From IMG/VR virus record IMGVR_UViG_3300035034_002688: 64,000 nt of DNA; one strand, given 5' to 3'. Positions within the stretch are counted from its first letter, which is position 1, and the number at the start of each line of letters is the position of its first letter. Below the pieces are notes generated by a model. It was not told where the DNA came from, searched no databases, and saw only the letters and a program-made list of their open reading frames with translations. Shown here in pieces: positions 7,122 to 64,000 of this stretch. The position numbers and the translations under genes were made by a program. Origin of the DNA: an uncultured virus (IMG/VR IMGVR_UViG_3300035034_002688) (Duplodnaviria > Heunggongvirae > Uroviricota > Caudoviricetes).

Positions 7122-7138
7122 ACTACACTCCTACGGGA

Positions 7139-8563: not shown

Positions 8564-8596
8564 GAGGTGTATCCTAGCTTGGAGAGATGTGCTCGC

Positions 8597-9523: not shown

Positions 9524-9529
9524 CTACAC

Positions 9530-9688: not shown

Positions 9689-9697
9689 CTTGACTCC

Positions 9698-11932: not shown

Positions 11933-11991
11933 GCGGGTAATGCTCTCAGGAGGTGCTGTGGATGCTCTCGTGAGTCCGCATCACAAGTGAA

Positions 11992-12525: not shown

Positions 12526-12604
12526 CTTAAACTCCTCTACTACCTCGACACGCGCATGGATACCCCAAGGTCGTCCGAGACGCAAAGTCTTTCTTGTCTT
12601 TTTC

Positions 12605-12634
12605 TTGACGGGGGTTCCAACCCTGTGGTAAACC
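12605..12634 (+). promoter_or_regulatory. Sigma70-like promoter (shared family, 18-bp spacing)
   Basis: TTGACG-N18-TAAACC with TGTGG before the -10; upstream of the HTH gene. Confidence 0.5.
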
Positions 12635-12691
12635 TTTTTACATGGCTTGACGGCCATATGCCGGACCGATCGGGTAGAGAGAGAGAGATAC

Positions 12692-13303: not shown

Positions 13304-13345
13304 TCACAGGCTACAGGGGTCGGATCACAAGCAGGGGGGCCGAAG

Positions 13346-13381
13346 AGAGGGGGGTGAGCGTTCAGGCGTTCACCTCTCTCT
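13346..13381 (+). terminator. 15-bp hairpin after the HTH gene, possible terminator
   Basis: AGAGGGGGGTGAGCG pairs with CGTTCACCTCTCTCT (with G-U pairs), 6-nt loop; no U tract. Confidence 0.35.
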
Positions 13382-13507
13382 GTGCGCCAGGAGCCGAATA
13401 ATCCGTTTGTTCCCGGTGAAGTTGTTGTACCACGTGTCTTCGCCCCTCGTGTTGGGTAGACGACCAACTCCCCAGATACAATCAGCCTTTGATGGCAGGA
13501 GACCAAG

Positions 13508-14851
13508 ATGAGTGAGATGAAGAGGATTGCCCAGTGGGCGCAGCGATTGAACCGCAGCCTTGAGATGATGCGTGCGAAGAAGGCCGCGAGCGAGAGCCGA
13601 ATCAGCTCCAAGGTCCAGGCTCTCCTGCGCATGGCTGGCGAGGGCAAGCTGGACGGCACGGCTCTTCTCTCGGACCTTTCACGTCTTGAGCGTCTGGCCG
13701 AGGAGAAGGGAGCCACCCACGCTACGTTGAAGCAGGTCGAGGAGGAGGTGGATCGCATCTACGGCGACCAGTCCAAGAACGACATCTACTACTTCAACCG
13801 TCGCAACAAGGGAGCCTCGGAGCTGGAGGAGGAGACCGCGAAGGCCGACAAGACCTACGGCGATCAATCCAAGAACGATACGTTCTACACGGGCAAGGCG
13901 GCGGCGGCGTTCATGCGCAACCGTGACGACCTCATTCAGCACATCGACCTTCTCCTCAAGCGTACCGATCGTTGGGAGCATGGCGGTGGAGATGCACACA
14001 AGTACGCTCGCCACCTTGCAGGACGATTCGAGCTTCTCGGCAAGGAAGAGTATGTGACGGGCATCTACTATGATGTGTACTTCAAGCGAATGGCCAAGCA
14101 GCTCAACATGTCGATGCGAGGCTCTTCCGAGGAGATGGACTACGTTCTTGCGGACGTGATCGACCAGCTCGCAAACCTTCGCAATCAGGTCCGACGTCTC
14201 AAGAAGGCTTCCAAGGAGCTGGAGGAGATGAAGGCCTTGACCACGTACGAGAACGAGGACGTCGACGCGGAGTGGGACGGCACGATGAATCAGGGGTTCG
14301 AGTCGGTACGTAACGCGGGCCTGAGCCCGATCGGCAAGACCATCTACCAGCAGCTCGGCAACAAGGCCGCCGTGATGTTGGGCGGGACGCTCTACGACAT
14401 CCGCAACGGCCTCGGGATCAAGTGGCCCAACCGTCAGCGCTCCAAGGGCAACTACGTGGAGATCGTCCTCAACGGGAAGGACCTCTACGACATGACCTTC
14501 TTCAACGTCTCGATGAAGGGCAAGAAGATGGTCAAGCAGTACAGGGACCTCTTCGCGGAGTCTCTGGCTCCGACCTTCGAGGACCAGACCGGCTGGTACC
14601 TGCGCATGTCTTCGGTAGAGGCGGGCGTGATCTCGCCGGAGCTTCTGCGTCAGGCGCTTGAGGAGGATGGCTTTGTGATCGACCCGGCTGACCAGCTCGA
14701 CCTCAACCAGCCGGGCCCTTACGACTACAACGCGCCTCTGCCCCTGGACGAGGCGCACCCTCTGGGCATCCACGACTGGCCTTCCCAGGAAGACCCTGAC
14801 CGTCCTATTCAGCACCTCCAGCCGGTGATGTCGAGCAAGAAGGGCAGGTAA
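13508..14851 (+). CDS. Multi-module hypothetical protein (447 aa), possibly head-associated
   Basis: CAGGAG RBS; internal duplication YGDQSKND x2; C-terminal TIYQQLG...DLYDMTF...FEDQTG segment. Confidence 0.7.
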   Translation: MSEMKRIAQWAQRLNRSLEMMRAKKAASESRISSKVQALLRMAGEGKLDGTALLSDLSRLERLAEEKGATHATLKQVEEEVDRIYGDQSKNDIYYFNRRNKGASELEEETAKADKTYGDQSKNDTFYTGKAAAAFMRNRDDLIQHIDLLLKRTDRWEHGGGDAHKYARHLAGRFELLGKEEYVTGIYYDVYFKRMAKQLNMSMRGSSEEMDYVLADVIDQLANLRNQVRRLKKASKELEEMKALTTYENEDVDAEWDGTMNQGFESVRNAGLSPIGKTIYQQLGNKAAVMLGGTLYDIRNGLGIKWPNRQRSKGNYVEIVLNGKDLYDMTFFNVSMKGKKMVKQYRDLFAESLAPTFEDQTGWYLRMSSVEAGVISPELLRQALEEDGFVIDPADQLDLNQPGPYDYNAPLPLDEAHPLGIHDWPSQEDPDRPIQHLQPVMSSKKGR

Positions 14852-36636: not shown

Positions 36637-37283
36637 CCCCTCCCCGTGTACGCGGGGATGTCCCGTGCCTACCCTTGTCTACGAACGGGGCGCGGCCCCC
36701 CTCCCCGTGTACGCGGGGATGTCCCCCTTCGACGGTCACGACGACCATCGACACCAACCCCCTCCCCGTGTACGCGGGGATGTCCCCTACAACCTGGGCT
36801 CGGCTCGCTCCAGGCAAGCCCCCTCCCCGTGTACGCGGGGATGTCCCCACCCACATCACGACCTCGAAGGACTCGTTGGTCCCCTCCCCGTGTACGCGGG
36901 GATGTCCCCATGGCGTCTGTCATGGGCAACAGGATGGACTTCCCCTCCCCGTGTACGCGGGGATGTCCCCGGGTACGTGAGCGCCTTGGCGGAACCCTTC
37001 CCCGTGTACGCGGGGATGTTCCCCGTGTACGCGGGGATGTTCCCCATTACAGGGCGGCACACCCTAGGTTCATAACCCCTTCCCCGTACACGCGGGGATG
37101 TTCCCCAGACACCCCAGATCCACCTTGGCGTCCAGACCCCTTCCCCGTACACGCGGGGATGTTCCCCTCACACCGAACGAGCGAACGCCAATGTGCCCTT
37201 CCCCGTACACGCGGGGATGTTCCCACCATGCCTTTTTGGACATGCACTGATTGTCGCTTCCCCGTATACGCGGGGATGTTCCT
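36637..37283 (+). CRISPR. CRISPR array 1, type I-E-like, 12 repeat units and 10 spacers, no adjacent cas genes
   Basis: 29-nt repeats CCCCTCCCCGTGTACGCGGGGATGTCCCC at 36637, 36698, 36759, 36820, 36881, 36942 (61-bp period), then CCCTTCCCCGT(GT/AC)ACGCGGGGATGTTCCC at 36995, 37016 (overlapping), 37077, 37138, 37196 and degenerate 37255. Confidence 0.97.
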
Positions 37284-37335
37284 GTTCCTGTTCCGTCTCG
37301 TTCTCCTCTCTATTGCCGTGGCAAAGGAGCCTGAT

Positions 37336-37670: not shown

Positions 37671-40600
37671 TCAGTCCGGATCGAGCAGGAATTCCAGCTC
37701 GTCAAGCAGGGTCGTGGTCTCCTGGAGATCGTCCTGATCCCGTGCGATGCGTGTCTGCTCCACCACATCCAGACCCGTAGCACGTTCGATCTTCTGCGTC
37801 AGGCTGACGCCTCCGATGGCGGAGAGGTCCTCGTCCTTCTCCAGACGTACGGCGACCACCTCCGGATCTTGAGCGGCGACTTGCCCCAGAGCGGTGGAGA
37901 GATCACGTCTCGCGCGGTCCAGCTTCAGGCGGGTATCTTCGGTCGCAGTGCGCGCCTCCGTGCCGAGCACCGATCCTAGCGTCTCTCCTGCGTCCAGGCG
38001 GCGGCGAATGTCCTCACGCCCAAAGATGCCTGTGTTTGCTCGACCCACCGGCTCCAGGTTCACCGTGTCGAGACCTCCAATGACGGGATTGGGAGGGGAG
38101 GTCGCGGGCGGGGTACGGTTCTCACCGCGTAGCTCGCGCTCTCGAATCGCACCCTGTTGGACGTCTCGCTCGTAGAGGTTGAGGAGGAAGCGGTTGAGCG
38201 CGTCGATGATCCCCGGATCACGGGGAGGGGTCAGGCCTTCCGGTAGCGTATTGACTCCGTTCTGGGCGTTGTCGTCGAGAGCTTCCGCGAAGCGGTTCAC
38301 TGAATCCTGCTCGTCTTCAATGACGTCCGGGAGCCCAACCGTGTTGACGCGGTTGGAGGCTTCAAGATCATTCGCCTCGTCACCTTGAAGAATGGCGGCC
38401 TCCGTGACCATGGGCTGCTCGGGCGTGACCACCATGCCGTCAGGTATCGGGAGCAAGGACTCAGCCCAGATCCCGCGCGCGGTCTCCTCATCTCCGATGT
38501 ACCCGTCAAGGTTCCAGGGCTTCTTGTTGGGCTTGTACTGTCGGGGGTACTCGGCTTGCCACTGGGCGATCTCGGCTGCGCTGGGGTTGGTCGCCAGGAA
38601 GCGGTTGTAGAGCGTCAGGCTTCCAGGACCTGCCTTCCAGAGGATGGCGATCTTGGTGGGATCGTTGCCGTGTCGGCCTTTGTACTTTTCGGCGTAGCGT
38701 AGGAAGTGCTCCAGGCTCTGGTCTGGCGCGTTCATGAAGTCGACGTTGGAGGTGTTGGTGCCGTCCCTCTTGTTGAACTCCTTCGCGTTGGTCTTGCCGA
38801 TCTGAACCAACCCGACAAACTGCGAGGGCTTCCCGTTCTTCTGCGTCCGTCTCGCATCGGCCTTACCCGAAGACTCGGTGTGGATGATCGCGAGCACCAA
38901 CTCATCGGGATAGGTCGCTTCGGAGTAGCCCAGCTTTTCGCGCGCCGCGCGGATGTTGGGGCGCCAACGGGCCACGTTCGAGTTGTACTTGAAGACGCGA
39001 CCTCGCGACGACTTTCTCACCGTCTTGTTGTTGACCGTGTACGAGTCCGAAGAGAGTGGGCTGGGCGCAGCGGTCGCCGGCACGGAGGAGGAAGCCCCCT
39101 GTGCGTTGGAGAACTGGAGCTGGGCGGAGAGCACGCGCGCGGCGAGCGTGGGGTCGGCCGAGATGTTGGGAGGTGCAAGCTCTGCGAGTCGTCGCCCGTA
39201 GTTGTTGGGGTCCAGCTTGAGCGCCTTGCCTCCCAGGTCTGCCTCATAGGCCGTGGCGAGGTTGTCGGAGATCTCATTTTCGGCGTTGGGCGTCGTCCTC
39301 CCTGGCTGCCCCAGGTCGTCGGGTGCGAGGTTGAGGAGCAGCTCCACGGCCGTGTTCAAGGGCGTCTGGTCAAAGCGGTAGCCTTGAGGGGTCGCCAGGA
39401 CACGGCGCCCGTACTCATAGGCTCCGATCACCTCATAGCCTCGCTCATCCGAGACCGGGAACACCACCGCGTTGACCGTGGCGGTCTCGGTGGTTCCTTC
39501 TGAGGTGGCCGTGATCTGTAGCTTGGGGTCGGACTCGATGTGAGTCACCGGACCTCGTGAGCGGTTGTTGGCCTCATCGGAGACGTAAGGGGTCTCCCGG
39601 TTCGGGTCAATGAGGTAGACGTAGCGGTTGTCTGTCGTGTTGCCAAACTGTGATCGCAGGTCGACCAAGTTACGCAGGCGGCGGTCCGAGTCAGTGGAGT
39701 CGTCCTCAAACGTGGGCACCACGTCACCGAACCTCTTGAAGTCCTTTTCGGGGAGGTAGGTCATCACCACGTTGCGGTCACCCAGGGGCCGCCCGTTGGG
39801 GTCTGTGGGTCGGGCCCCGATGTTTCTCGGGATGTCACCGGGGAGCGCCAGATCACCGGGCTTGGGCTCGGCCGCCTCGTCACGCCACCGCTCAAAGGCC
39901 CCGTAGAACTTCTGTCTGCGCGCGGAGAGGGTCAGGGACGTGGTACAGCGTGATCCATACCCGAAGCTGTGTGAGATGCCCTCCACGTAGTAGTACGCGT
40001 CCTTGCCCTCCACATAGACCGGGTACCCCAGGCGAAGCTCGGGTCGAAACGGGATCGTGACCGTGCCGCTGTTGATGCGCGCGTTCTGCTGATCCAGGAT
40101 GTCGACGAGGTGGTAGAAGAGCGCCTTGGGCCCTCCGTTCTCCTTGGACCCAATGAACTCGGAGCTGAACGCTCCTGGACGCCATCCGTACTTCTGGACG
40201 AGCCTGTAGTCGACGTACGTAGCCTTGGTCTGTGCCAGGGAGGAGAGCCCGACCTCGACGTTCTGTGTGTAGCGTCCCGTGGCCTCCACGAAGGTCGCTT
40301 CCGGAGGGTTCTCCGAAAAGTTCCAGGAGATCACGTCAACGTCTCGAATCCAACTCACGGGGAAATTCAGCCGGGTGTCCATGTTGAAGAACGGAGGCTT
40401 GAAGATGATCTCCCCCGTGACGTCCATGTAGAACTCGTAGTTGATCGCCTCCTTGGTCTGCAAGGCGAGGTTGAGCTTGTTCTCGAACTCACTGTTCTCG
40501 ATCTCTACCGCACCGAGCTGACTCAGCTTCTGGCTGAAGGGGGCGATGGCGCTCACGTCGAAGAAGTCCTGCTTGAAGGGCTCGTAGTCCTTGAGCTTGG

Positions 40601-41399
40601 TAGCCTTGGCGGACCCCTTGCGCTGGCGAAGGAAGAAGTCTCGGTTCTCGCCCGAGAGCACGCTCGCGAGCTGGCCACCCTGGAGGACGTTCCCGGAGGG
40701 GCCATACATCTTGATGTTCTGCGTGATCCGACCCCACTTGGCGCTCCAGTAGGCCATCATCCTCTTGGTGTCCGCTCCCGAGATCGGCTCGGTACGGGCT
40801 TCGCGGTTTGGGACCGACTGATTACGCACGTTCATCGAGTCCCCATACACGTAGCGTGAGAGGCTGTAGATGATGTCGAAGGCGTTCATGCCCGTGAACG
40901 TGTGTCCTCGCAGGTTGACCTGTTGGGTCTGGTCCTTCAAGGTCGCCAGATACGACGGGTTGATGTTGATCTGCGAGACCTGCCACCAGTACAGGATGTC
41001 CGAACAGCTCAAGCTGACCGTCTGCTCGCCGGCCGAGTAGCTCTCCTGCAAGCTCGTGACGACGCCCCAGAAGATCGGGTAGTACCGTGGCGATCCGCCC
41101 ACCGAGAAGTGACCCTTGGCGTAGATCTGGACCTCCATCATCGTGGTCAACGTGAGCTGACCCCCCACATAGATGTCACCCAGGTAATGTGCCGGGATGT
41201 GCAGGTCAATGGAGGCGCTGCCGGGCACCGAGTTGACCCCCAGGTTGACCGAGATCGTGTTGATCAACGGCTGCAAAGGCACGCGTCGGTTCGGGTTGGC
41301 TCCGCTTGGGAGGCTCAGCTCTCCGTTGATGTAGACCAGACAGTCTGGCGCCGTGGTGACGACGGGGCGGCGGTTTGGCTTGTAGGTCCCTTGGTACAC
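37671..41399 (-). CDS. Baseplate hub-like protein with SLT lytic transglycosylase domain (1242 aa)
   Basis: N-half gp27/GPD-like (PIFWGVV, YEFYMD..GEIIFKPPF, VTIPFRPELRLGYPV...YYYVEGISHSF); SLT motifs LAIIHTESSG, GLVQI, WKAGPG. Confidence 0.8.
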   Translation of the reverse strand: MYQGTYKPNRRPVVTTAPDCLVYINGELSLPSGANPNRRVPLQPLINTISVNLGVNSVPGSASIDLHIPAHYLGDIYVGGQLTLTTMMEVQIYAKGHFSVGGSPRYYPIFWGVVTSLQESYSAGEQTVSLSCSDILYWWQVSQININPSYLATLKDQTQQVNLRGHTFTGMNAFDIIYSLSRYVYGDSMNVRNQSVPNREARTEPISGADTKRMMAYWSAKWGRITQNIKMYGPSGNVLQGGQLASVLSGENRDFFLRQRKGSAKATKLKDYEPFKQDFFDVSAIAPFSQKLSQLGAVEIENSEFENKLNLALQTKEAINYEFYMDVTGEIIFKPPFFNMDTRLNFPVSWIRDVDVISWNFSENPPEATFVEATGRYTQNVEVGLSSLAQTKATYVDYRLVQKYGWRPGAFSSEFIGSKENGGPKALFYHLVDILDQQNARINSGTVTIPFRPELRLGYPVYVEGKDAYYYVEGISHSFGYGSRCTTSLTLSARRQKFYGAFERWRDEAAEPKPGDLALPGDIPRNIGARPTDPNGRPLGDRNVVMTYLPEKDFKRFGDVVPTFEDDSTDSDRRLRNLVDLRSQFGNTTDNRYVYLIDPNRETPYVSDEANNRSRGPVTHIESDPKLQITATSEGTTETATVNAVVFPVSDERGYEVIGAYEYGRRVLATPQGYRFDQTPLNTAVELLLNLAPDDLGQPGRTTPNAENEISDNLATAYEADLGGKALKLDPNNYGRRLAELAPPNISADPTLAARVLSAQLQFSNAQGASSSVPATAAPSPLSSDSYTVNNKTVRKSSRGRVFKYNSNVARWRPNIRAAREKLGYSEATYPDELVLAIIHTESSGKADARRTQKNGKPSQFVGLVQIGKTNAKEFNKRDGTNTSNVDFMNAPDQSLEHFLRYAEKYKGRHGNDPTKIAILWKAGPGSLTLYNRFLATNPSAAEIAQWQAEYPRQYKPNKKPWNLDGYIGDEETARGIWAESLLPIPDGMVVTPEQPMVTEAAILQGDEANDLEASNRVNTVGLPDVIEDEQDSVNRFAEALDDNAQNGVNTLPEGLTPPRDPGIIDALNRFLLNLYERDVQQGAIRERELRGENRTPPATSPPNPVIGGLDTVNLEPVGRANTGIFGREDIRRRLDAGETLGSVLGTEARTATEDTRLKLDRARRDLSTALGQVAAQDPEVVAVRLEKDEDLSAIGGVSLTQKIERATGLDVVEQTRIARDQDDLQETTTLLDELEFLLDPD

Positions 41400-41508: not shown

Positions 41509-41647
41509 GTACCACAGAGTAAGAGTTGGTAAAGTAAAACGGCGAACCTCATGCTAACAGGATTCCCCTTATGAATCAAGGAGTTAGGTACACTTCCGAA
41601 GGCTTGAACATTTGAAGAGTGTTCCCCGCGCGAGCGGGGAAGTTCCT
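41509..41647 (+). CRISPR. Duplicated array-2 leader plus a solitary type I-E repeat
   Basis: 41583-41630 is identical over 48 nt to the reverse complement of the array-2 leader/repeat junction; 41526-41542 is identical to revcomp 62482-62498; single repeat GTGTTCCCCGCGCGAGCGGGGAAGTTCCT at 41619-41647; IHF consensus match AATCAAGGAGTTA at 41574-41586. Confidence 0.9.
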
Positions 41648-41687
41648 ACCTTCTACTACGACCACACCTTCTGTGGGGGATGAGACC

Positions 41688-49801: not shown

Positions 49802-52800
49802 ATGACAGGCGACTTCAACGGCTGGGTGCTTCGTAAGCCACGGGTAGCAGCTTCCAACGCCAACACCACCGCTGAACCTGATGTCGTCGTGCGCGAGCAG
49901 GATGAGGCCGCGTATCGCGCCTCCTACCTCGACAACGTGAGCGCTACGGGGTCGGAGTACCTCGTCCGTACTGCACAGACCGGTGACCTCGTGGTCCCCT
50001 CGTCGATCACCGAGATTGCGAGCCCCTTTGATGGCTCCTTGCCGACCGCGCTCGTCTTCACGTTCAACACGCAGGGTCGCGCCGTCGCTGCGCCCGTGCT
50101 CCCCGCAGATGTGACGCCCCTTCCGGACAGCGTGGACACGTCTGCCGGCCTGATCACCTATCTGGTCGCCCCTGGTGTGGCACCCACCGTCACCTTTGTA
50201 CCTGCACCCCTGTCTGTCGAGTACACCCGCAACGACTCGGGGCGTACGCGCTTTGGATACGATGCGCGCGTGTCCCGTTGGGAGACCCTCCCCGGAGGCT
50301 CACCCGAGTCCCTCGGTCTGGTGCCTGAAACCGGCCTCCTCACGCTCCCTCTCGTTGAAGCTGATGCAGCGGGCGCGCCGGCCCCTCCTCGCGTCCTGCT
50401 TGGCAATCCGGACCGTCTGTTGGGGACCCTCGTGGACGTCACACAGCTCCTGGGTGAAGACGCGTTCGCGGATTACCGTGATGGCATCCTTGACCCTGCG
50501 TCTGGAGAAGGGGCGCTGAACGTGGAGACGGGGGAGCTTCGACTCGCCCCGTCCTTGACGGTAGGATTCGAGGCTCAGGAGGCCTTCTTTACCCGGCGCA
50601 ACTTCTTCGCCTTTGATGCGTCAACGGGACGCGTCGGGATCATCGGAGAGGACCTCCTCTTGAACCCGTTGCCCCTGGTCGGAGAGGAGCCCCTGCTTCG
50701 CGTAGGGTACGGCTCGTATCTAAACGCGTCCGTAGGGGCGGGCTCTCCGGTGGGCAGCGAGCAGGCACGTGTTGATCCGCTCACGGGTCGAGTCAACTTG
50801 AGCGCGGCTCTTGAGGCTCAATCAGAGGGCTTAGCTCTCTACTACGATGGGGTTCTTACGGGGACCGCGACGCCTCAGGCTCCTACAGTGCTCGGAGACC
50901 TCCTCTCCAACCAATCGGGCCTCTCCAATGTGGACCTCCTGGAGTACGAGCCGGAGGCGCTGGTGCTCTATATCGAACAGACCGGGGAGGCGGTGCGCGA
51001 GCTGGAGTTCGTGGCCGACCCGTCGGACTTCACTGAGGCGCGCAACCTCCCTCCCACGAAGGCGCAGGTCGCCCGGTCAGATGGGTCCGTTCGCTTGAGC
51101 CAGCGTTTCGTTTCGGCCAACCTCTCGCGTGATCTTGTGGCGGGCTCCACGGACCTCACGCTCGAACGTGGGCTGACGTTTCGGATGGGCCGATCACCCC
51201 TTGACCCAACCAACGCAGCCGGGCTCCCGGACGGCCAAGGCGTCTTGCGCCTGGAAGATGAGCTGCTGGGCCCCGTTCGCAGTGGGCCTTCCGCGTTCCT
51301 GACTCAGGTGCCCCTGGTCGACGTCGCAGGTTATGCGGCAGACACCTTTTACCGTCTGGGGAGCGGGGCCCAACGGCGCGTACTCGTCCCGGATGAGGAG
51401 GTGATCTATGATTTTGATACCCGTCAGCTCCTGTGGGCCCAGCGTCGTACCACCTCACAGACGATCTCTCAGCGCACGTTCTCCGTACGCGTCCCGGATC
51501 AGGTCCTGCTCAACCGTAACTACAGCTTCGAGCTGAACCGGGGCAGCGGCTTTGAGGCCCTGGAGGATGGCGTCAACGCCTCCGTGGACTTCGACATTGG
51601 GGAGATCCGCTTCACCCAGACGCAGGGTGAGGTTCTGATTGAAGACGTCGCGACCGTGGCGGGACAGGAGTTCACGTTCTTGACCGAGGACCTCTCCGGG
51701 GTCGTCATTTCGCTGGTGGACCTTGACCGGCCCCTGCTTCGTACAGGCCTGAACGCCTACACGATCACGGGCATCGCGGGTAGCGTGGTGACCGTGGAGG
51801 GGGACGTCCAGGAGAGCGGCTCCGTCGCTGTCGAGATCATCTCCGCGCCCGAGCCCGTGTACGCGTACGCGCTCGCGCAGGTGAACCTCAACCCGGACAT
51901 CGTGGCGGCGTTCCTGGTCCGCGAGGTGGACAGCTCCGGGACCGTCTACGCTCCGGGGACCACAGGAGAGGTCTATGCGGTCTCGGGCGGAGTCCGTCGT
52001 GATGTCGTACGGCTCGCCTCAACCGTTCTCGGAGAGGCACAGGATGCCTTGACGCTTCCTGCGTTTGCACAGGGGGCCGAGGCTGTCTTTGAGATCTACC
52101 TTGGGAGTGATCTCCTGGTAGAGGTCGGCGGGACGCCCAACCAGGGTGAGTACCGCATCATGGGCGTGGACTTGGTGCTCTCCTCGGCGGACGTGCTGGC
52201 CAACCCCAAAGAGCTGGTTACGCTGGACCCGAGCCTGAGCACGGCGCGCGCGACCGGGGACGTGGAGCTGCTGGTCGCTACCCGCGAGCTGGGGTTCCCT
52301 CTTGACCTCGCAGTCGTAGACCTCTACGTACAGGTCGAGGCGCGTATCCAGGACCGCCTCCTCTACTTCTCCCAGCCTTTCGCTGCGGGAGATCGCCTGA
52401 GGGCGCGCTACCGTACCGCTGATGAGGTTGAGGTGGAGGAAGAGGTAGGCTTTCGCGTCGTGGAGGATGCCGTGATCGTGAGCGCGACCGAGGCGACCTA
52501 CGGGGCTGGACGCCTCCTCGACCCGAACCGCGCTCCTATCATACTCGTCAATGGAGCACGCACAGACCTCCCGGTAGATCCGGTGGCGGGCACCATCAAC
52601 ACCAGCTCGGTTCGTACGGGGCGCACGATCAGCGTGAGCTACGCCGCACTCGATGCCAAGGGTGGGGAACAGACCGCGAGCCTTCTCCAGACGCCCGTGT
52701 CTCCTGATGTGGTGTTCGCTCCTGGGACCAGCCAGACCTTGCGCGGTGATCAGACCGACGACCTCTTCCTGGGTGCGTTTGTCCAGGCGGGCTCAACGAG

Positions 52801-55800
52801 CTTCACCGTGGCGAGCGTGCCGACCTATGATGGAACGCAAACCACCTTCGAGGTCGAGCCTTCGCTCCCTCAAGAGGTACGCAATCCGATCACTCTTGTC
52901 AGCGGGACGGTGTTTGACTTCGAGGTACTCCCCACGCTTGCCTTTGATGCCCCCGTGCAGGGCTCGACAACCTTGCGCGTCTTCTCAGACGTGACAGGCC
53001 TCCTCAAGGCGCAGCGGGTGCTCGTGCTCGACTCGGACGCTTACTACGTCACCGACGTCACCTTCGACGGTGGCCAGACTGTCCTCTCCTTGGCGAGCCC
53101 GCTCGCGCGCGCATACAGCTCTCCCCTGGCGTCTCAGTCCGTGTTTACGGTGTATGGCCCCGGTGCTCAGGTCCTGTTGACCGAGAAGACGGGACTCGAC
53201 GGAGGCCTCGTTGAGGTGATCCGCCGCGCCGCAAATGGAGACCTTACGGTAGTAGATCCCTCGACCTACCTGTTTGAGCCTGCGGGTCGTCTCACTCTGG
53301 ACCCTACCCTGACGGCTCCGCTGTCTCGGGGAGAGGTGGTCTTCTTGCGGTACACCGCGCTCGATCCGGTAGGCCCCACGACTCTTGGGGGACAGCTCTT
53401 CTTGCCTCGCTTCCGTGGGACCTACACGCAACGGGTCAACGCCTCCGAGACCAATGGCTACCTGGGGTCGAACCTGTACGTGAGCGCGACCTTGCGCGCG
53501 CCTGACACCTTCTACTTTCGCGTCCTCCCTCTCGCGGAATGGTCCGAGGAGGTCGCTCAAGGCTTGACGACCTCTTCAGGCACGGGCCCCGTGGTCTCTT
53601 CGTTCGCGACGACGCCCCTGTCAGATCAAGGTATCCAGACCCTGGTTGGGGAAGGGGGAGACCTCTACGATACCGACCGCGCCGCGCGTCGCTACCTTTC
53701 GTTCTACAATGACCTCGTGACCGCCTTCGAGAACGTCCAGGAGGTCCTGGATGGTCGAGTGATCGGAGACCGTGACGGCAAGTTCCGCTTCACCGTCCGT
53801 GCAGACTCGACCCCTGGAGGTGAGGACCCGATCACGGGACGCCTGCTTCCCTACTACATCAACCCGGCCAACCCTGGAGTGCGTCCGACGAGCGTTCAGA
53901 TCGGGGACACGGGAGACCTGACCTTGCAGACCGGGCTCGTCCAGAACAACCTCGACGACATCCTGCTCACCTCCAAGCGCCCCTTCTCCCTGAACATCCT
54001 CGGGTTCACGATCGACTACACAGGCACGTTCAAGCGTGCCTGGGAGCCCTCACGCCTCTCGCGTCTCTACCCCGAAGAGTCCACGGTCCAGACGATCACG
54101 GTGCCCCCTCTTGGCGGAGGCGGCAGCTACACGTTTGGAGACGATGGCGGGCAGATCCTGGCAGACTCGGGCGTCACGGGGGTCCTGGCGATCAAGGGTA
54201 TCCGTCCGCGCGGGTCCGCCGCCACGGTTACGAAGGTGACGCCCGGAGATCCGCTCGTGCTGTCTTGCGCGCAGACCTATGACCCGATCACAGGCGACCT
54301 CTCCAACGCTCCCTATGACCTCACCACAGGTGACCCCTCGCGCGCGCGCCCGCCGTTTGAAGTAGGTAGCCGGGTCGACATAGGCCGGGTCGTCTTTAGC
54401 CGAAACGGTGAGGATGTCACGAGGACCGAGGTGCTCGTGGCTCGGGACTTGGTGGTCGACTCGGTGACCGCTTCAACTCTTGAGCTGGTCGAGGGTGCAG
54501 GCACGGCAATCGGTTCGGTAAATACACGAGCGGGAGATACGGTGTACGAGGCTACGCCTCTGGACCTCCCCGGAGTCGCAGACTTGGCATCGCTCGACCC
54601 GGCCGACATGCCCTTCTACCGCAACCCACTGGACGTGACCCTGGACGGAGCGACTGGAGAAGTCATTAACCCGACCCTACCCGGATTCTTTGCGACCTTG
54701 CTCGGTCAGAAGGTGCCTCCTCCCGGCACTCTGCTCGATCTGACCGTGAGCTACCAGAATACGAACACGTCTCCTCGTCGTCCTCCCGCTCTTGATGGAG
54801 GTGCGGCCAATGACGATGGGGACCTCAGCGTCCCGTTCGTCTCTCCAATGCCGGACTCGGAGCTGTCTCGTCTGCCTGCCGAGCTGGCTGCGATCACGAC
54901 GCTACTCTCCAACACGGAGCCCGGCGTCTACGTGTCCGCGGCGACGCGTCTCTCGGCCACGACCCTCTCGACGTCTCTGGACCTCACTGGCCTTGGAGTG
55001 GGAGTCCAGGGGTTCACCCTCCTTGAAGGTTCTCCTGTGGTCTACTCCTCTTCGGAGGTGCCGGGACCCAACGTCTTGACCCTGGCAGCGTTTGAGTATG
55101 AGGACCTGACGGCTCCCTTTGAGGTGCCTGACCTCTTCGCGGGTTCTGGTACCGTAGCGGGCGCGGTCCTTACCGACGCGGGCACGGACTTCACCGCGTT
55201 CTCGGGAGCGACGATCACCCTCAATATTGACGGCGGAGCCTCTTACCCGGTGAGCGTGCTCTCCAACGGGTCTCTTACGGCTACGGGCGTGATCGCGGAG
55301 ACGGGCGCGCAAAGCTACACGTTGAGTGCGAGCGGGGTAGGCTCCATCTCCACGGACTTGACCACTCTGGAGGCTCCTGGAGTTGACTTCACCTCGGCGT
55401 CCGGGCCCTTCACCGTCGCACGTCCGTTCAATGGCGGCCTCTCTCCCATCACCTTCCTCGTGGGAGAGGGCTCAGACGGATCTCTCGTGCCAGACCTCAT
55501 CCCTTCAGGCTTCAACGGACCGTTGGCAGTGGGTCCACTGGTGCCGGTAGCCTCAGGGACCGCTCAGGTGTCTGTCACAAACGTGCTCAGTACCCTGGAC
55601 TCCCTGGCATCTGTGGCTCCAGGAGACACGCTCATCATTGCCTCTTCGTCTCCCAACGCTGGCCGCTACCGGGTGGGTGCAGTAGGCGCGACGACGTTGA
55701 CCCTGGATGTGGGAGCGGACGCGAGCATCTGGAACACCTTCTTCTGGGACAATGAGGGCGGAGGCATCACTTACCCTGTGGACTACACGGTCGTGCGTCC

Positions 55801-56635
55801 TCGCCGCTACAGCGTGGAGATGGAAGACTACCGCGAGGAGCTGGCACGTCAGCGGGTGATCTATGAGGACAACGCCAACGCGCCGGCTGACATCATTGGC
55901 TTCCTCACGGCGACGTCTTCCAACCCCGCCACGCCCTTGAAAGAGCGGCTGGACGCTCTTGACGCCCTCCTGTTGCCGGCTCCTTTCCTTACGCTTACCG
56001 GCGTGGCGGAGACGGGCGCGCAGACCTTGACCGGTGGCGTGGACTTCGTGGTGGAGGGGGTGGAGACGGGAGACCTCGTGCGCGTGGACGCGGGTATCAA
56101 TCGAGGCTTCTACTTCGTCACTGGAGTCTCCAGCGCAGCGATCACCCTGGACGGCTCGAACCCTTACGTCACCTACACGCTGAGCAACGACGGCGCTACG
56201 GACTACACGGTCACCAAGGCGGAGGGGTTCCAGGACCTCACGTACCAGCTCGTGCTCTCGGAGATCTACGGACTTGACCAACGCATCGAGCGTCTGGACG
56301 CGGGTATCCGAGGGGTCGACACGGACACGGACGACCTTCTGGGAGTGCTTCCGTACGGTAGCCTGACAGGAGACTACACCGACGACACCCTCACGGCCCA
56401 CCAGACGCAAGCTCAGGCGAGGTTGGACCGTCTACAGGTGGTTCCCACGCTTGCTCAGGACATCGAAGGCATCTTGAAGGGGTCTGAGGCCCTGTATGAT
56501 ACGCGGTATGCCTGGGTAGACTATCGCGCGAACCTTGAAACAGGTACCCTGCCAAGAATCCGTCGATACCTTGCTACGGTAGACAAAGAGAAGGAGCGAC
56601 GCTTGAGGGAACTCACTCGCGCCGGTTCAACTTGA
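49802..56635 (+). CDS. Very large virion structural protein, probably baseplate wedge-like (2277 aa)
   Basis: Uninterrupted 6.8-kb ORF; beta-rich acidic composition; within the baseplate region. Confidence 0.65.
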   Translation: MTGDFNGWVLRKPRVAASNANTTAEPDVVVREQDEAAYRASYLDNVSATGSEYLVRTAQTGDLVVPSSITEIASPFDGSLPTALVFTFNTQGRAVAAPVLPADVTPLPDSVDTSAGLITYLVAPGVAPTVTFVPAPLSVEYTRNDSGRTRFGYDARVSRWETLPGGSPESLGLVPETGLLTLPLVEADAAGAPAPPRVLLGNPDRLLGTLVDVTQLLGEDAFADYRDGILDPASGEGALNVETGELRLAPSLTVGFEAQEAFFTRRNFFAFDASTGRVGIIGEDLLLNPLPLVGEEPLLRVGYGSYLNASVGAGSPVGSEQARVDPLTGRVNLSAALEAQSEGLALYYDGVLTGTATPQAPTVLGDLLSNQSGLSNVDLLEYEPEALVLYIEQTGEAVRELEFVADPSDFTEARNLPPTKAQVARSDGSVRLSQRFVSANLSRDLVAGSTDLTLERGLTFRMGRSPLDPTNAAGLPDGQGVLRLEDELLGPVRSGPSAFLTQVPLVDVAGYAADTFYRLGSGAQRRVLVPDEEVIYDFDTRQLLWAQRRTTSQTISQRTFSVRVPDQVLLNRNYSFELNRGSGFEALEDGVNASVDFDIGEIRFTQTQGEVLIEDVATVAGQEFTFLTEDLSGVVISLVDLDRPLLRTGLNAYTITGIAGSVVTVEGDVQESGSVAVEIISAPEPVYAYALAQVNLNPDIVAAFLVREVDSSGTVYAPGTTGEVYAVSGGVRRDVVRLASTVLGEAQDALTLPAFAQGAEAVFEIYLGSDLLVEVGGTPNQGEYRIMGVDLVLSSADVLANPKELVTLDPSLSTARATGDVELLVATRELGFPLDLAVVDLYVQVEARIQDRLLYFSQPFAAGDRLRARYRTADEVEVEEEVGFRVVEDAVIVSATEATYGAGRLLDPNRAPIILVNGARTDLPVDPVAGTINTSSVRTGRTISVSYAALDAKGGEQTASLLQTPVSPDVVFAPGTSQTLRGDQTDDLFLGAFVQAGSTSFTVASVPTYDGTQTTFEVEPSLPQEVRNPITLVSGTVFDFEVLPTLAFDAPVQGSTTLRVFSDVTGLLKAQRVLVLDSDAYYVTDVTFDGGQTVLSLASPLARAYSSPLASQSVFTVYGPGAQVLLTEKTGLDGGLVEVIRRAANGDLTVVDPSTYLFEPAGRLTLDPTLTAPLSRGEVVFLRYTALDPVGPTTLGGQLFLPRFRGTYTQRVNASETNGYLGSNLYVSATLRAPDTFYFRVLPLAEWSEEVAQGLTTSSGTGPVVSSFATTPLSDQGIQTLVGEGGDLYDTDRAARRYLSFYNDLVTAFENVQEVLDGRVIGDRDGKFRFTVRADSTPGGEDPITGRLLPYYINPANPGVRPTSVQIGDTGDLTLQTGLVQNNLDDILLTSKRPFSLNILGFTIDYTGTFKRAWEPSRLSRLYPEESTVQTITVPPLGGGGSYTFGDDGGQILADSGVTGVLAIKGIRPRGSAATVTKVTPGDPLVLSCAQTYDPITGDLSNAPYDLTTGDPSRARPPFEVGSRVDIGRVVFSRNGEDVTRTEVLVARDLVVDSVTASTLELVEGAGTAIGSVNTRAGDTVYEATPLDLPGVADLASLDPADMPFYRNPLDVTLDGATGEVINPTLPGFFATLLGQKVPPPGTLLDLTVSYQNTNTSPRRPPALDGGAANDDGDLSVPFVSPMPDSELSRLPAELAAITTLLSNTEPGVYVSAATRLSATTLSTSLDLTGLGVGVQGFTLLEGSPVVYSSSEVPGPNVLTLAAFEYEDLTAPFEVPDLFAGSGTVAGAVLTDAGTDFTAFSGATITLNIDGGASYPVSVLSNGSLTATGVIAETGAQSYTLSASGVGSISTDLTTLEAPGVDFTSASGPFTVARPFNGGLSPITFLVGEGSDGSLVPDLIPSGFNGPLAVGPLVPVASGTAQVSVTNVLSTLDSLASVAPGDTLIIASSSPNAGRYRVGAVGATTLTLDVGADASIWNTFFWDNEGGGITYPVDYTVVRPRRYSVEMEDYREELARQRVIYEDNANAPADIIGFLTATSSNPATPLKERLDALDALLLPAPFLTLTGVAETGAQTLTGGVDFVVEGVETGDLVRVDAGINRGFYFVTGVSSAAITLDGSNPYVTYTLSNDGATDYTVTKAEGFQDLTYQLVLSEIYGLDQRIERLDAGIRGVDTDTDDLLGVLPYGSLTGDYTDDTLTAHQTQAQARLDRLQVVPTLAQDIEGILKGSEALYDTRYAWVDYRANLETGTLPRIRRYLATVDKEKERRLRELTRAGST

Positions 56636-60478: not shown

Positions 60479-61151
60479 CTATTCGACAGGTTCCACGCGA
60501 CGGCGGTACTGGACTCCTCGGCGGTACTTCCCCCTTAAAGCCTTCAAGGGTGTGAGATCTTGGATGTGGTTGTAATCCAGGGATATCCATCCCGCCTTCA
60601 CCATGCTTGCGAGAGGCTCCACGTCGTCGATGTGGTTCCCCCCAAGGTCGAGTTCCACCATCTCTACCATTCCCGCAAGGGGCGATACGTCCTCTATTTT
60701 ATTGTCCGAGAGCGTCAGGTATTCAAGCTTGGTCAGCCCTGTGATCGGGCGGGAGATCTTCGATGGCATTTCTGTCCAGGGACGGATGCAGCATTCCGAC
60801 CATCTGCGCGATAGGGGTGAGGTCTTTGATGTTCAGCTCCATCGCCTCCAACTCGACGACGTTCGTGAGGCCATGCAGCCGCGCGAAGTCCTCGGCTTCG
60901 TAGAGCGCCAAATCTGTTGTGATCTTGGGGCACAGCTCCTGGAGTTCAAAGGCGCGCTCGACCTTGCTGTGACATAAAACGGGTCTGGAGACCTTGAAGT
61001 CGAGTCCCATGACGTAGGGGAGCACCTGATCCGCGTAACGCGTCGGGTCCTCTTCCCTCATGCGGTACAGGATGTGGTACAAGTGCGGTGCCTCCACCGG
61101 GTTCCCGGAGTGCAGGAGGCTACGGAGGTCGTGAAAAGCTTCGGCTTGCAG
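60479..61151 (-). pseudogene. Internalin-type leucine-rich repeat gene split by a frameshift
   Basis: LRR register (NIKDLTPIAQM, NAIEDL / PITGLTKLEYLTLSDNKIEDVSPL, NHIDDVEPL) continues across two frames near 60750; CTG lies where a start is expected. Confidence 0.7.
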
Positions 61152-61164
61152 GGTTCGTCTCGCG

Positions 61165-61563
61165 TCAGGTGTGTGTGGCGGCAAGATGAGCAAGGAAGGC
61201 TTCCACCTTGAACGGTGTGAACGTTCCGGGACCGTCCCAGTCGTCCTCAACATGTAGGTCCAAGTGCGGGCGGCCTTTGCATCGGAACGAGTAGCCCTTG
61301 TGTCCTGAGTTCGTGCGCTCAATCTCAAGACGCCAGCCCTCCTCTAGCCAGACAGCGATGGCGCCGCCCTCCAAAGATAGTGTCAGCACGTAGGGGTCAC
61401 CCAGATGTGCTTGGAAGGCGTCCACGTCGCAAAAGAAGGCATCGAGGGCATCCGAAGAGGGCTCGGGCCAGTCTTCCTCATCCTCCCACCGATAGCTCAA
61501 GATCGTCATGAGGTCGGACGTGGTGTCCTGCGCTCGTGTTTTATCCCAAAAATCCCAAAACAC
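61165..61563 (-). CDS. Hypothetical protein (132 aa)
   Basis: AAGGAG RBS before GTG. Confidence 0.6.
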   Translation of the reverse strand: MFWDFWDKTRAQDTTSDLMTILSYRWEDEEDWPEPSSDALDAFFCDVDAFQAHLGDPYVLTLSLEGGAIAVWLEEGWRLEIERTNSGHKGYSFRCKGRPHLDLHVEDDWDGPGTFTPFKVEAFLAHLAATHT

Positions 61564-61882: not shown

Positions 61883-61949
61883 AACTATCTCAGTCTTCGA
61901 GGCTTCGAATGCCCACGGTCTGGTAGGTCTCAAAGCCCACAACCTCTTC

Positions 61950-62405
61950 TGGGACATCCCCGCGTGCGCGGGGAACACGCTCCCCTTCGATACAGAGATC
62001 TTCTTTCTACCGGGACATCCCCGCGCACGCGGGGAACACGGGTAGAACAAGAAGATGTATGAGAGGGGATCCGGGACATCCCCGCGCACGCGGGGAACAC
62101 CGGACGAGCATGGGGAGACGTATTCGCCCTACCGGGACATCCCCGCGCACGCGGGGAACACTTGAAGCTGGAAGGATGCACGAGATGTGCGTGCGGGACA
62201 TCCCCGCGCACGCGGGGAACACACAGGTGTGATCACAAGAGCATGTCGCCTCATCGGGACATCCCCGCGCACGCGGGGAACACGTCAAAGCTGGTCACCT
62301 TTGGAGCGTGAACGGCGGGACATCCCCGCGCACGCGGGGAACACCATGACACCGACACACCCGCACTTGGTGCATCCGGGACATCCCCGCGCACGCGGGG
62401 AACAC
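61950..62405 (-). CRISPR. CRISPR array 2, type I-E, 8 repeats and 7 spacers of 32 nt
   Basis: Repeat GTGTTCCCCGCGTGCGCGGGGATGTCCCG (minus strand) at plus-strand starts 61950 (variant, terminal), 62011, 62072, 62133, 62194, 62255, 62316, 62377; exact 61-bp period. Confidence 0.98.
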
Positions 62406-62515
62406 TCTTCAAATGTTCAAGCCTTCGGAAGTGTACCTAACCCCCTGTATTCGCTCAGGAATTCTGTTGGCATGGGGTACACCGTTTTACTTTACCAAAT
62501 CGTACCCTGCGGTAC
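62406..62515 (-). promoter_or_regulatory. Leader of CRISPR array 2
   Basis: AT-richer non-coding stretch between the cas gene stop and the first repeat; homologous to 41509-41618. Confidence 0.85.
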
Positions 62516-62524
62516 AAGCCTGAA

Positions 62525-64000
62525 TCAGGAGGCCTTCTTGGTGGGGGCGCGGTAGTAGGTGCGCGTCCACTCCATCTGCGTCTGAGAGCCCCAGGTGAGG
62601 AGGCTCAGGATGAGGTCGTTGGCGTCGGCACCCTGACCCTCAATGCGTCCGAGGACGTTGCGGAGCTGGCGCCAGTGGCCGTTCAAGGTGCCTCCCGAAC
62701 ACAGGCGCTCGAACGAGCGCTCCTTGATGTCACGAGACTGCGCGAGGACGCGCGCGACGGGGCGGTTGCCCTTGAAGCCGGTGGGCTTGAGGCCCGCGAG
62801 CAGGACCGCCAGGAGGAACACGCGCTCCTGCAACTCGGGGGCGTTCTCACCAAGGTTACGCTCCACCACCTTCTCCAGGGCCTTCTCCAGCAGGATGGCG
62901 GGGCGCATGTAGCGTACGTCCTGGAGGTTCTTGGCGCGAGAGAGCGCGACGCGGCCGGAGCCCTTGTCGTGGTGGAGGTTGCGCCACCACTTGTGGACCA
63001 CGGAGAGGATCTCATCCTTGTGGGCGTATACGATGTTGTTCATGGGGTTCTTCTCTCTCTTGGTGGAGGTGCCGCAGAGTTTGAGGAGCTGCTTTTCGAG
63101 CCCGGCTCGTTCCCTCACGGCGGATGTGATGGTGCGGGTGTTCATGCGCGATTTGCGAGTGACACGGCCTCCAACGAGGGAGTCGAAGATCGTGAGCGCG
63201 GTGGTCGCGAGGAGGCGCTTGTAGGGCGTATAGACCATCTCCTCAAGCTCCTCCCGGTTGGTCGTGAGCTTGACCTTGGCGAGCGCGTCGTATGCAGCCT
63301 GTTCGGTGTGTGACCACAGCTCGGAGTTGTTCCGGCCTCCCAGGCAGGCGACCTTCGCGCGGAGCACCTTATCCACCTCGGACGTGAGCTTGACCAGCGC
63401 CCCGAAGGTGTCCTCATCACGCAGAGCCTGTGAGCCCTCGAAGATGAAGATGTACTTCTCGAAGAAGCTCACCGTCTTGCCCGCAAACATGTTGAATCCG
63501 AAGACACGCAGCGGGGGAAGCCCTCCCCATACCTCATCCCAATGCTCCGCGACCTCATCGTACAGGAAGGCCTTGCGCTTGGTGTGGGTGATGATTGGGG
63601 GCGTGTGGAGGGTCTCGGAGTAGGCGTGGGAACCCAGAACGTTCCACGTGCGCCTGTTGGTGACGGTCTGCACAGCGCGGACATCTTTCACATCTTTGGG
63701 GGTCCACTTGCCGTTGACGCCCATCGTCTTGAGGTTCTTGAGGGTGGTGGCGTTGTTGGGGAGCTGCCAGACACCCGACATGGGGATGCACTGACGAGAC
63801 CCCGGCAGACCTTCCCACTTCTCGGACTGCGCTGTGTAGCGCTGCCGGTTGCCCCAGGGCTGCGCATCCACGTAGTCCAGGAGCCCGTCCTCATCCGGCT
63901 CCGGCAGGACCCACTCACGCGTGAGGTGCCAGAACGCGGTCAAGGGGTGGTAGTCCAGGTCGTGAGCGCGCCACCCCTCGATCTGACTCTCTTCGACCCA
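62525..64000 (-). CDS. Cas8e (Cse1)-Cas11 (Cse2) fusion protein, 5' end beyond the window
   Basis: Frame is open to 64000. Cse1-like motifs HPLTAFWHLTREWVL, LRVFGFNM..K, LWSHTEQAAYDAL, ALTIFD. Last 172 aa are Cse2-like (WWRNL...GRVALSRA...SFERL...QLRNVL...LLTWG...EWTRTYY). Adjacent to a I-E array. Confidence 0.8.
   Translation of the reverse strand, partial: WVEESQIEGWRAHDLDYHPLTAFWHLTREWVLPEPDEDGLLDYVDAQPWGNRQRYTAQSEKWEGLPGSRQCIPMSGVWQLPNNATTLKNLKTMGVNGKWTPKDVKDVRAVQTVTNRRTWNVLGSHAYSETLHTPPIITHTKRKAFLYDEVAEHWDEVWGGLPPLRVFGFNMFAGKTVSFFEKYIFIFEGSQALRDEDTFGALVKLTSEVDKVLRAKVACLGGRNNSELWSHTEQAAYDALAKVKLTTNREELEEMVYTPYKRLLATTALTIFDSLVGGRVTRKSRMNTRTITSAVRERAGLEKQLLKLCGTSTKREKNPMNNIVYAHKDEILSVVHKWWRNLHHDKGSGRVALSRAKNLQDVRYMRPAILLEKALEKVVERNLGENAPELQERVFLLAVLLAGLKPTGFKGNRPVARVLAQSRDIKERSFERLCSGGTLNGHWRQLRNVLGRIEGQGADANDLILSLLTWGSQTQMEWTRTYYRAPTKKAS

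Follow-up and report, generated by a model that had tools for sequence, protein, structure and literature searches.

The reading frame at the far edge of the stretch of DNA analysed here (64,000 nt from an uncultured virus, IMG/VR record IMGVR_UViG_3300035034_002688; hereafter the window) very probably encodes Cas8e/Cse1 and Cas11/Cse2 together, as part of a type I-E Cascade-Cas3 system that is self-contained, serves interference only and resides in a huge freshwater phage. The frame is free of stops on the minus strand from the window edge at 64000 to the stop codon at 62525-62527, and its 5' end is open in the window. In the virus record G001, which is 100% identical to the window over positions 61900-64000, the full ORF comprises 735 codons (L006:1159-3366), of which the window carries the last 491 (residues 245-735); residues 1-244 lie outside the window edge (L006:2635-3366). 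The initial annotation had proposed that the phage encodes Cas8e and Cas11 fused in a single chain, immediately ahead of a type I-E array, and profiles, fold and array position all bear out this proposal. The distance from the end of the ORF to the first repeat, given there as about 120 bp, was measured as 119 nt and, as it also stated, cas7-cas5-cas6e-cas1-cas2 are absent between the fused gene and the array, no gene being present in that interval.

Domain composition of the fused protein

The cas8e (Cse1) part covers residues 245-554 within the window (63071..64000, minus strand) and the cas11 (Cse2) domain residues 571-733 (62534..63022, minus strand). The two are arranged end to end and joined by a connector of about 16 residues (555-570, including Met564; 63023..63070, minus strand), which corresponds to the gap between the Cse1 and Cse2 structural alignments and is predicted as coil at residues 554-562 in the secondary structure of the model. 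With the full-length protein, the large-subunit family PF09481 matched residues 4-500 (E 1.6e-18, 67.6 bits vs a cut-off of 24.7); the in-window fragment alone gave no Pfam match, and the stricter Cse1 equivalog TIGR02547 remained below its cut-off (41.6 vs 70.05 bits). The Cse2 part matched TIGR02548 with 38-39 bits (39.1 at best) vs a cut-off of 28.5, over profile positions 2-166 of 167.

An AlphaFold model of the fused protein built from a 65-row alignment (pLDDT 79.3, pTM 0.75) superseded a single-sequence fold of the query, P0001 (pLDDT 33). Residues 3-554 of this model aligned with residues 1-495 of E. coli Cse1 (Z 32.7, rmsd 3.2, 453 residues aligned) and residues 571-733 with residues 3-159 of E. 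coli CasB (Z 15.6, rmsd 2.8 over 149 residues). A Foldseek search with the fused model retrieved 23 chains of Cse1 at E <= 4e-6, followed by chains of Cse2; for the Cse1 part, 4u7u_M was matched at E 2.6e-15. Among PDB sequences, a 4-row profile (A1) matched both Cse1 and Cse2, including Thermus thermophilus Cse2 (2zca_A, E 1.4e-7), and a phmmer search with P0001 alone returned 0 matches at E <= 1. The profile searches and structure prediction suggested in the initial annotation have in this way yielded PF09481 and TIGR02548 above their cut-offs and a match to both folds, so that the signature large subunit (PF09481, Z 32.7) and the small subunit (TIGR02548, Z 15.6) of type I-E are both represented in one frame.

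A complete interference operon upstream of the fusion

Extension past position 64000 and a search for cas3, cas5, cas6 and cas7 located all four genes directly upstream of the fusion, on the same strand and just past the window edge. The order of the operon is cas3, cas7, cas6e, cas5e, cas8e::cas11, the 119-nt leader and the array. Family matches were obtained for Cas7e (TIGR01869, 182.1 bits; cut-off 178.05), Cas5e (TIGR01868, 142.1 bits) and Cas6e (TIGR01907, 72.4 bits), while Cas3 (876 aa) contains an HD domain (PF18019, E 2.7e-27) and a helicase (cas3_core, 190.7 bits). Cas5e is a protein of 248 aa that matched only Cas5 families and has no HNH domain, and Cas7 is enlarged, with 448-496 aa in two phages, i.e., 85-130 residues beyond the 361-position family profile. 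Cas7e, Cas5e, Cas6e and a Cas3 with HD plus helicase are consequently encoded in one operon, as in type I-E; separate cas8e and cas11 genes in the order cas8e-cas11-cas7-cas5-cas6e are found neither in G001 nor in a second phage genome, G002 (see below). Each of these records gave a single Cse2 match, located within the fused frame with no stops, and no separate cas11; in G002 this match is under the cut-off (21.5-24.4 vs 28.5 bits). No match to Cas1 (PF01867) or to the I-E family of Cas2 (PF09707) was obtained in G001 (a fragment lacking window positions 1-13867) or in the complete G002.

Occurrence of the fusion in related phages

A HMMER search of 1.84 billion representatives returned 70 matches, including three fusions besides the query: P0002 (726 aa, aligned over 2-733), P0003 (718 aa) and P0006 (688 aa, with a long Pro/Ala-rich linker). 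These three clusters share 25-31% identity with the query, and one of them is encoded on the complete 437-kb phage genome G002, which carries the same fusion in the same gene order at a syntenic site and has arrays between its cas genes (cas7, array, cas6e, array, cas5e, cas8e::cas11, array). When G001 and G002 were compared, 61 of the 94 long ORFs of G001 had collinear matches in G002, mostly at 45-75% identity, and the fusion reached only 27%. All five cas genes are intact in both phages and their products are ~27-50% identical, and on this comparison of sequences the cas locus is old and retained. Between the two genomes the Cas proteins have evolved much faster than the neighboring genes.

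In a metagenome scan an identical ORF was detected on a 365,960-bp contig (L022), contigs of this phage measuring 366-373 kb, and the only other match was one plain Cse1 N-terminus; scans of viral collections found the fusion only in G001 and G002. A word-based search with the whole protein retrieved only itself, and one with the Cse2 alignment among longer proteins retrieved only P0001, missing even the G002 fusion, hence its weakness as a measure of rarity. No RNA run was found to contain the stretch. The phage identity of the carrier is only partly established, on the basis of its virus-collection record, direct terminal repeats, matches to baseplate-J and to tail-fibre and virion PHROGs, and PolA, DnaB and PhoH; Terminase_6N and Phage_sheath_1 gave no match in G001 or G002.

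Leader and arrays

The leader (62406..62524, minus strand) extends 119 nt from the stop codon to the first repeat, and a scan of these 119 nt detected neither a sigma-70-like promoter nor a terminator. It is followed by a CRISPR array (61950..62405, minus strand) co-directional with the cas operon, consisting of 8 repeats of 29 nt and 7 spacers of 32 nt with a period of exactly 61 nt; the first repeat occupies 62377-62405 and the leader-distal repeat is a variant. Palindromic 29-nt repeats with 32-nt spacers are those of type I-E, and the array had no Rfam match, including CRISPR-DR. A second array of the same repeat family, with 12 repeat cores of two repeat subtypes (36637..37285, plus strand), probably feeds the same Cascade as the main array, and a solitary repeat unit formed by a leader copy (85% identical, 41509-41646) and a single repeat is located at 41509..41650 (plus strand). 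Since the repeat-core pattern matched 42 times in the window vs 0.16 expected, a chance origin of these repeats is excluded.

Alternative explanations for the locus

That two separate genes were joined artificially, through a chimeric assembly, a frameshift or an overlooked stop, is hardly credible. The evidence on the reading itself consists of contigs from three runs: a contig at depth 14 spans 62433-64000 with zero differences, and the one independent contig near the joint, X2 (63030-63293), extends just 11 nt past Met564, too short a distance to count formally as independent bridging. Against an artefact, the window, G001 and L022, all assemblies of this phage, show the frame uninterrupted, and the missed stop that the initial annotation recommended looking for at 63040-63120 is absent there and in the three other clusters, one of them on a complete genome; neither phage, moreover, has a separate cas11. 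Because fused proteins recur at about 30% identity, assembly error was excluded. The initial annotation had also left two explanations of the gene content, a rearranged phage Cascade with the rest of the genes upstream or a minimal module in which the phage gives the PAM-reading, Cas3-recruiting subunit together with guides and borrows Cas5, Cas6 and Cas7 from the host. The latter accommodates the lack of any other cas gene within the 64-kb window, but it has next to no probability, being refuted by the upstream operon of G001, repeated in G002, which encodes the rest of Cascade and Cas3; the former is the one that stands.

It could also be argued that DNA cleavage has been lost and the locus now serves as a repressor or a decoy, or that the system is gradually disappearing. 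The failure to find an adaptation module or any spacer target (see below), the solitary repeats and the many degenerate mini-arrays would fit with such repurposing or decay. This explanation is nevertheless improbable, considering that the five genes are intact in two phages at the protein divergence mentioned above, that Cas3 retains its HD and helicase domains, and that repeat stems stay paired across different arrays despite changes on both sides.

Internal start or obligate single chain

Met564 (ATG, 63041-63043) is a candidate internal start for a free Cas11 of 172 aa. In the alignment it shares a column with the N-terminal Met of five free Cse2 proteins and with Met553 in the G002 homolog. 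The bases preceding this internal Met are rich in purines, and the codons there include AGA, a rare one that accounts for 5.5% of Arg codons. Internal in-frame starts are known to yield Cas11 in types I-B, I-C and I-D (bioRxiv 10.1101/2020.04.18.045682, in the parts considered here). Based on this analysis, there is close to an even chance that Met564 also starts a free Cas11 that would fill the second small-subunit position.

According to the competing explanation, whose probability falls a little short of even, the 735-aa protein is the sole product, so that a Cascade has a single, tethered Cas11 rather than two free copies; the second position would be empty or taken by Cas6e or by the enlarged Cas7. 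The upstream pairing energies are not distinctive, which is compatible with an obligate single chain: the two phages gave -5.3/-5.4 kcal/mol, values that rank at only the 22nd-23rd percentile among their internal ATGs (for Met564, -5.3 kcal/mol and the 22nd percentile of 169). The same direction is taken by the alignment, in which a Met occupies the Cse2 start in two of the four fusion members and is absent at that column in P0003 and P0006, the latter with a Pro/Ala-rich linker typical of a true tether. The 85-130 additional residues of Cas7 also favor this explanation, as do reports that the type I-E Cascade with Cas5-HNH, which contains a single Cas11 in its solved form, is functional (PMC11794572, in the parts considered) and that in vivo E. 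coli can do without Cas11 in both silencing and plasmid interference (PMC12235044, likewise). Conversely, the spacer length of 32 nt is canonical and implies a backbone of full length, and both phages with readable DNA retain a Met (Met564/Met553) precisely where free Cse2 starts. Furthermore, all fused large-small subunit genes studied so far gave a free small subunit, as described in the passages considered of bioRxiv 10.1101/2020.04.18.045682.

Comparison with known systems

The textbook example of a small subunit that is a separate protein and occurs twice is type I-E. Its canonical gene order is cas3-cas8e-cas11-cas7-cas5-cas6e-cas1-cas2 followed by the array, and the canonical Cascade has the stoichiometry Cas8e(1):Cas11(2):Cas7(6):Cas5(1):Cas6e(1). 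The phage system resembles canonical I-E systems (E. coli K-12 CasA-E, Thermobifida fusca, T. thermophilus) in having Cas3, Cas8e, Cas11, Cas7e, Cas5e and Cas6e, complete Cse1 and Cse2 folds, 29-nt stem-loop repeats and 32-nt spacers. It differs from them in that cas8e::cas11 is a single ORF, in the order cas3-cas7-cas6e-cas5e-cas8e::cas11, in that cas1/cas2 were not found, and in residing in a huge phage whose arrays are numerous and dispersed.

In types I-B, I-C and I-D, too, a single ORF encodes the large subunit with a C-terminal Cas11 and has an in-frame Met at the border (bioRxiv 10.1101/2020.04.18.045682; PMC11899642). In those systems, however, the Cas11 sequence is the C-terminal domain of Cas8 or Cas10d itself and is produced by internal translation, whereas the phage fusion adds a complete Cse2 to a Cas8e that is itself complete, C-terminal helical bundle included, and its internal start is putative. 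Fusions of cas8 and cas11 have been mentioned, with no description or test in the passages considered, in HNH variants devoid of Cas3 and related to I-E and I-F1 (PMC10910872), a group that includes PDB entries 8YB6 and 8ZLU. The phage system is unlike the HNH-Cascade in that it has a full Cas3 and its Cas5e is without HNH. With respect to the CRISPR-Cas systems of huge phages, it shares the carrier of several hundred kb, the apparent lack of adaptation genes and a presumed role in inter-phage conflict; those described were a type I-C variant and class 2 systems, with no I-E fusion in the passages covered (PMC7162821). In the literature searched, no description was found of a Cas8e-Cas11 fusion in a Cas3-bearing I-E system; a 2022 Cell survey of virus-encoded systems may list such loci.

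Proposed origin, mechanism and significance

In the canonical Cascade, solved structures place the Cas8e-proximal Cas11 beside the C-terminal helical bundle of Cas8e. The fusion may have originated by loss of the cas8e stop codon and of the intergenic gap, given that the position of Met564 coincides exactly with the first residue of free Cse2 proteins. Cas6e would cut the transcripts of the many phage arrays into 61-nt crRNAs, and Cas7, Cas5e, Cas6e and the fused protein would assemble on each of them, with the tethered Cas11 adjoining the C-terminal helical bundle of Cas8e. Cas3 would then degrade the matched DNA, most likely that of competing phages or of mobile elements sharing the host.

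The fusion suggests that a large-small subunit gene has arisen again within type I-E, providing a young example of how such genes may form, with the stop lost and the old start codon retained. With it, the question of whether tethering allows Cas11 to stand in for one or both of the free copies can be tested directly, and type I genome-editing tools gain a ready-made Cascade with one gene fewer. The phage setting, in which no adaptation module was found, mini-arrays are dispersed and Cas proteins evolve fast, contributes a class 1 case to the view that huge phages use CRISPR against their competitors. A broader proposal, tentative and rather unlikely, is that of a clade of huge phages with a four-gene Cascade, in which Cas8e-Cas11 is a true single chain and the arrays lie between cas genes, one transcript cut by Cas6e supplying both mRNAs and guides; as part of it, Cas6e perhaps regulates itself through the repeat hairpin located just upstream of cas6e. 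If true, it would imply an independent and recent re-invention in I-E of the I-B/I-C/I-D large-small fusion and would provide a naturally compacted Cascade-Cas3 for engineering.

Spacer targets and host

No protospacers were detected for both arrays of the window among 50,697 phage records, where 5 weak matches corresponded to repeat sequence. An exact scan of viral contigs with two of the seven spacers matched only the array itself, and the 78 inter-repeat segments of G001 and G002 had no match outside arrays in either genome. As no spacer target was found, the biological target named above is a guess.

Dozens of dispersed mini-arrays, many of them degenerate, are present in the phage genome in addition to the solitary repeats. 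A scan for the repeat pattern returned nine loci, of which real arrays were present only in Roseomonas oleicola (19 and 12 matches), a lead rather than a host assignment.

A Conserved Cas8e-Cas11 Fusion

On the minus strand, a single stop-free frame runs from position 64000, its 5' end open at the window edge, to a stop at 62525-62527. A virus record of the same phage (G001, a fragment of 125,429 bp) is 100% identical to window 61900-64000 and continues beyond the edge, which gives a complete ORF of 735 codons (P0001) with residues 245-735 inside the window. The Cse2/CasB profile TIGR02548 matched the in-window fragment with 39.1 bits (cut-off 28.5), the alignment extending from position 2 to position 166 of the 167 in the profile; a Pfam search with this fragment alone returned no match. 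On the full protein, the Cse1 profile PF09481 scored 67.6 bits (cut-off 24.7) and the stricter TIGR02547 scored 41.6 bits, below its cut-off of 70.05.

A P0001 model built from a 65-row alignment of its relatives reached a pLDDT of 79.3 and a pTM of 0.75 (pLDDT 33 for a single-sequence model). A Foldseek search with this model ranked 23 Cse1 chains ahead of the Cse2 chains, 4u7u_M being the best of them (E 2.6e-15), and VIA-align placed residues 3-554 onto E. coli Cse1 1-495 (Z 32.7, rmsd 3.2, 453 aligned) and residues 571-733 onto E. coli CasB 3-159 (Z 15.6, rmsd 2.8, 149 aligned). These matches indicate that P0001, as modeled, consists of two complete proteins placed end to end and joined by a connector of about 16 residues; residues 554-562 are coil in the model and hydrophilic in sequence.

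A full HMMER search with P0001 against 1.84 billion representative proteins produced 70 matches at E <= 0.001, among which three fusions were found besides the query: P0002 (726 aa, query 2-733 aligned to 3-718, E 2.5e-67), P0003 (718 aa, E 9.8e-51) and P0006 (688 aa, Cse2 part 571-728 aligned to 529-675). The remaining matches are ordinary proteins of one kind or the other, either Cse1 (about 470-620 aa, some of them fragments) or Cse2 (168-229 aa). The four fused proteins can be aligned from end to end at 25-30% identity, their linkers varying, and the conservation of this architecture across divergent proteins excludes an artefact as its origin. An identical ORF is present on contigs of 365,960 bp and 373,477 bp, and a lake water metagenome contig (8,881 nt, depth 14) is identical over window 62433-64000. 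In other samples of these contig-level lake water data, two short contigs match without differences at 63030-63293 and 63386-63630, neither of them formally bridging the joint. The single-chain fusion beside a type I-E array proposed in the initial annotation is real and conserved, with both predicted domains recognized by profile and by fold. A literature phrase search for a type I-E Cas8e-Cas11 or Cse1-Cse2 fusion returned none, nor was one described in the broader listings and abstracts retrieved. Fusions of cas8 with cas11 are mentioned in PMC10910872, for HNH variants that lack Cas3.

A Rearranged Type I-E Operon

Two explanations had been offered for this gene: a rearranged phage Cascade with the remaining genes upstream, or a minimal module swapping a subunit into host Cascade. 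Beyond position 64000, G001 has four further cas genes directly upstream and on the same strand as the fusion, encoding Cas3 (876 aa, HD and helicase), Cas7e (448 aa; L006:4991-6337, minus strand), Cas6e (domain 96-312 of a 319-codon ORF, likely start Met77) and Cas5e (248 aa, without an HNH domain), in the order cas3-cas7-cas6e-cas5e-cas8e::cas11-leader-array. Their presence refutes the subunit swap and supports the rearranged Cascade. Cas1 and I-E Cas2 profiles found no match in the G001 fragment, and the Cse2 profile matched it in one place only, within the fused frame. The system is a rearranged, Cas3-bearing type I-E system in which no adaptation genes were found, carried in a clade of likely huge phages.

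A syntenic relative, G002 (437,490-bp virus record, direct terminal repeats, estimated completeness 100%), carries a member of the P0002 cluster and the same gene order (cas3, cas7, array, cas6e, array, cas5e, fusion, array); Cas1 and Cas2 profile searches of G002 gave no match, and its single Cse2 domain scored 21.5-24.4 bits, under the cut-off. Of 94 long G001 ORFs, 61 match G002 collinearly, mostly at 45-75% identity, and identity is 27% for the fusion, 42% for Cas5e and 49% for Cas3. The locus has therefore long belonged to this clade, has been kept there and evolves fast.

In G002, Cas7e has 496 aa (L010:6158-7648, plus strand), the family profile having 361 positions; the extra 85-130 residues of Cas7e might matter if Cascade contains one Cas11 only. 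The cas7-cas6e gap of G001 (L006:4914-4990, minus strand, outside the window) holds two repeat-like hairpins before the likely cas6e start, and in G002 the final repeat of a mini-array (L010:8012-8052) directly precedes the cas6e start, suggesting that the transcript of this operon may itself be a Cas6e substrate.

One Product or Two

Canonical I-E Cascade contains two Cas11 copies (bioRxiv 10.1101/2020.04.18.045682; PMC11794572). In types I-B, I-C and I-D, the gene for the large subunit yields free Cas11 through internal translation (bioRxiv 10.1101/2020.04.18.045682). Only one Cas11 is present in the solved Cas5-HNH I-E Cascade (PMC11794572), and in E. coli Cas11 was dispensable in vivo (PMC12235044). 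The phage gene may yield both the fused protein and free Cas11 started at Met564, a reading to which we give slightly less than an even chance. In alignment, Met564 falls in precisely the column where five free Cse2 proteins have their first Met and the G002 protein has Met553, and purine-rich codons lie upstream in both phages, including in this one AGA, which accounts for 5.5% of its Arg codons; however, P0003 and P0006, available as proteins only, have no Met in this column. Set against 169 and 53 in-frame internal ATGs, the predicted pairing with a generic anti-Shine-Dalgarno sequence (-5.3 and -5.4 kcal/mol) stands at the 22nd-23rd percentile, and the true cas ATG starts of this phage (-2.7 to -5.9) are no stronger than the internal candidate; the nominal cas5 TTG start gave 0.7. 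Pairing strength therefore does not tell true starts from other ATGs here.

Arrays and Spacers

The array (61950-62405, minus strand) begins 119 nt beyond the ORF stop and comprises eight 29-nt repeats with an exact 61-nt period and seven 32-nt spacers. Its repeats share the reading direction of the fusion gene, the variant repeat is the one most distant from that gene, and a leader copy (85% identical over 138 nt) precedes a solitary repeat at 41509-41650 (plus strand). On these grounds the leader lies at the gene-proximal end and the array is thus co-directional with the gene. Behind the solitary repeat comes a small ORF; leader copy and repeat together may form a unit of one repeat or be what is left of an array. 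A second array (36637-37285, plus strand) has 12 repeat cores of two repeat subtypes, and its stems differ from those of the first in both arms yet still pair; at 36998-37037 the spacing is irregular, two cores being separated by just 21 nt. Arrays are numerous and dispersed in both genomes: the G001 fragment (125 kb) holds six arrays and two solitary repeats, and G002 about 16 array loci, which range from 1 to 9 repeat cores and in several cases lie between cas genes.

No protospacers for either window array were found in 50,697 phage records, exact scans with two of the seven spacers matched only the array itself, and 78 inter-repeat segments gave neither self-match nor cross-match in the G001 and G002 genomes. 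By analogy with the role described for huge phages in PMC7162821, the system may be directed against rival elements. Among nine genome loci with the repeat pattern, true arrays occurred only in Roseomonas oleicola, a weak host lead.

The Probable Carrier Phage

The carrier is likely a huge phage, as indicated by the virus-collection records, the terminal repeats of G002 and genes for a baseplate-J-like protein, for proteins with tail-fibre-like and virion PHROG matches, and for a family-A DNA polymerase, a SNF2 helicase, PhoH and a DnaB-like replicative helicase (L030:7717-10707, minus strand) split by a LAGLIDADG-bearing intein. Terminase_6N and Phage_sheath_1 profile searches gave no match, and most large ORFs lack a family match. 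Three giant ORFs lie in the window: one of 2277 aa (49802-56635, plus strand) without PHROG match and 56% identical to its G002 counterpart, one of 1574 aa (311-5035, minus strand) with only short tail-fibre-like or virion-like repeat PHROG matches, and one of 1242 aa (37671-41399, minus strand) without PHROG match, in which an SLT transglycosylase domain was detected (G001 stop-to-stop frame, 1257 aa). Short ORFs at 60479-61328 (minus strand) have translations resembling leucine-rich repeats.
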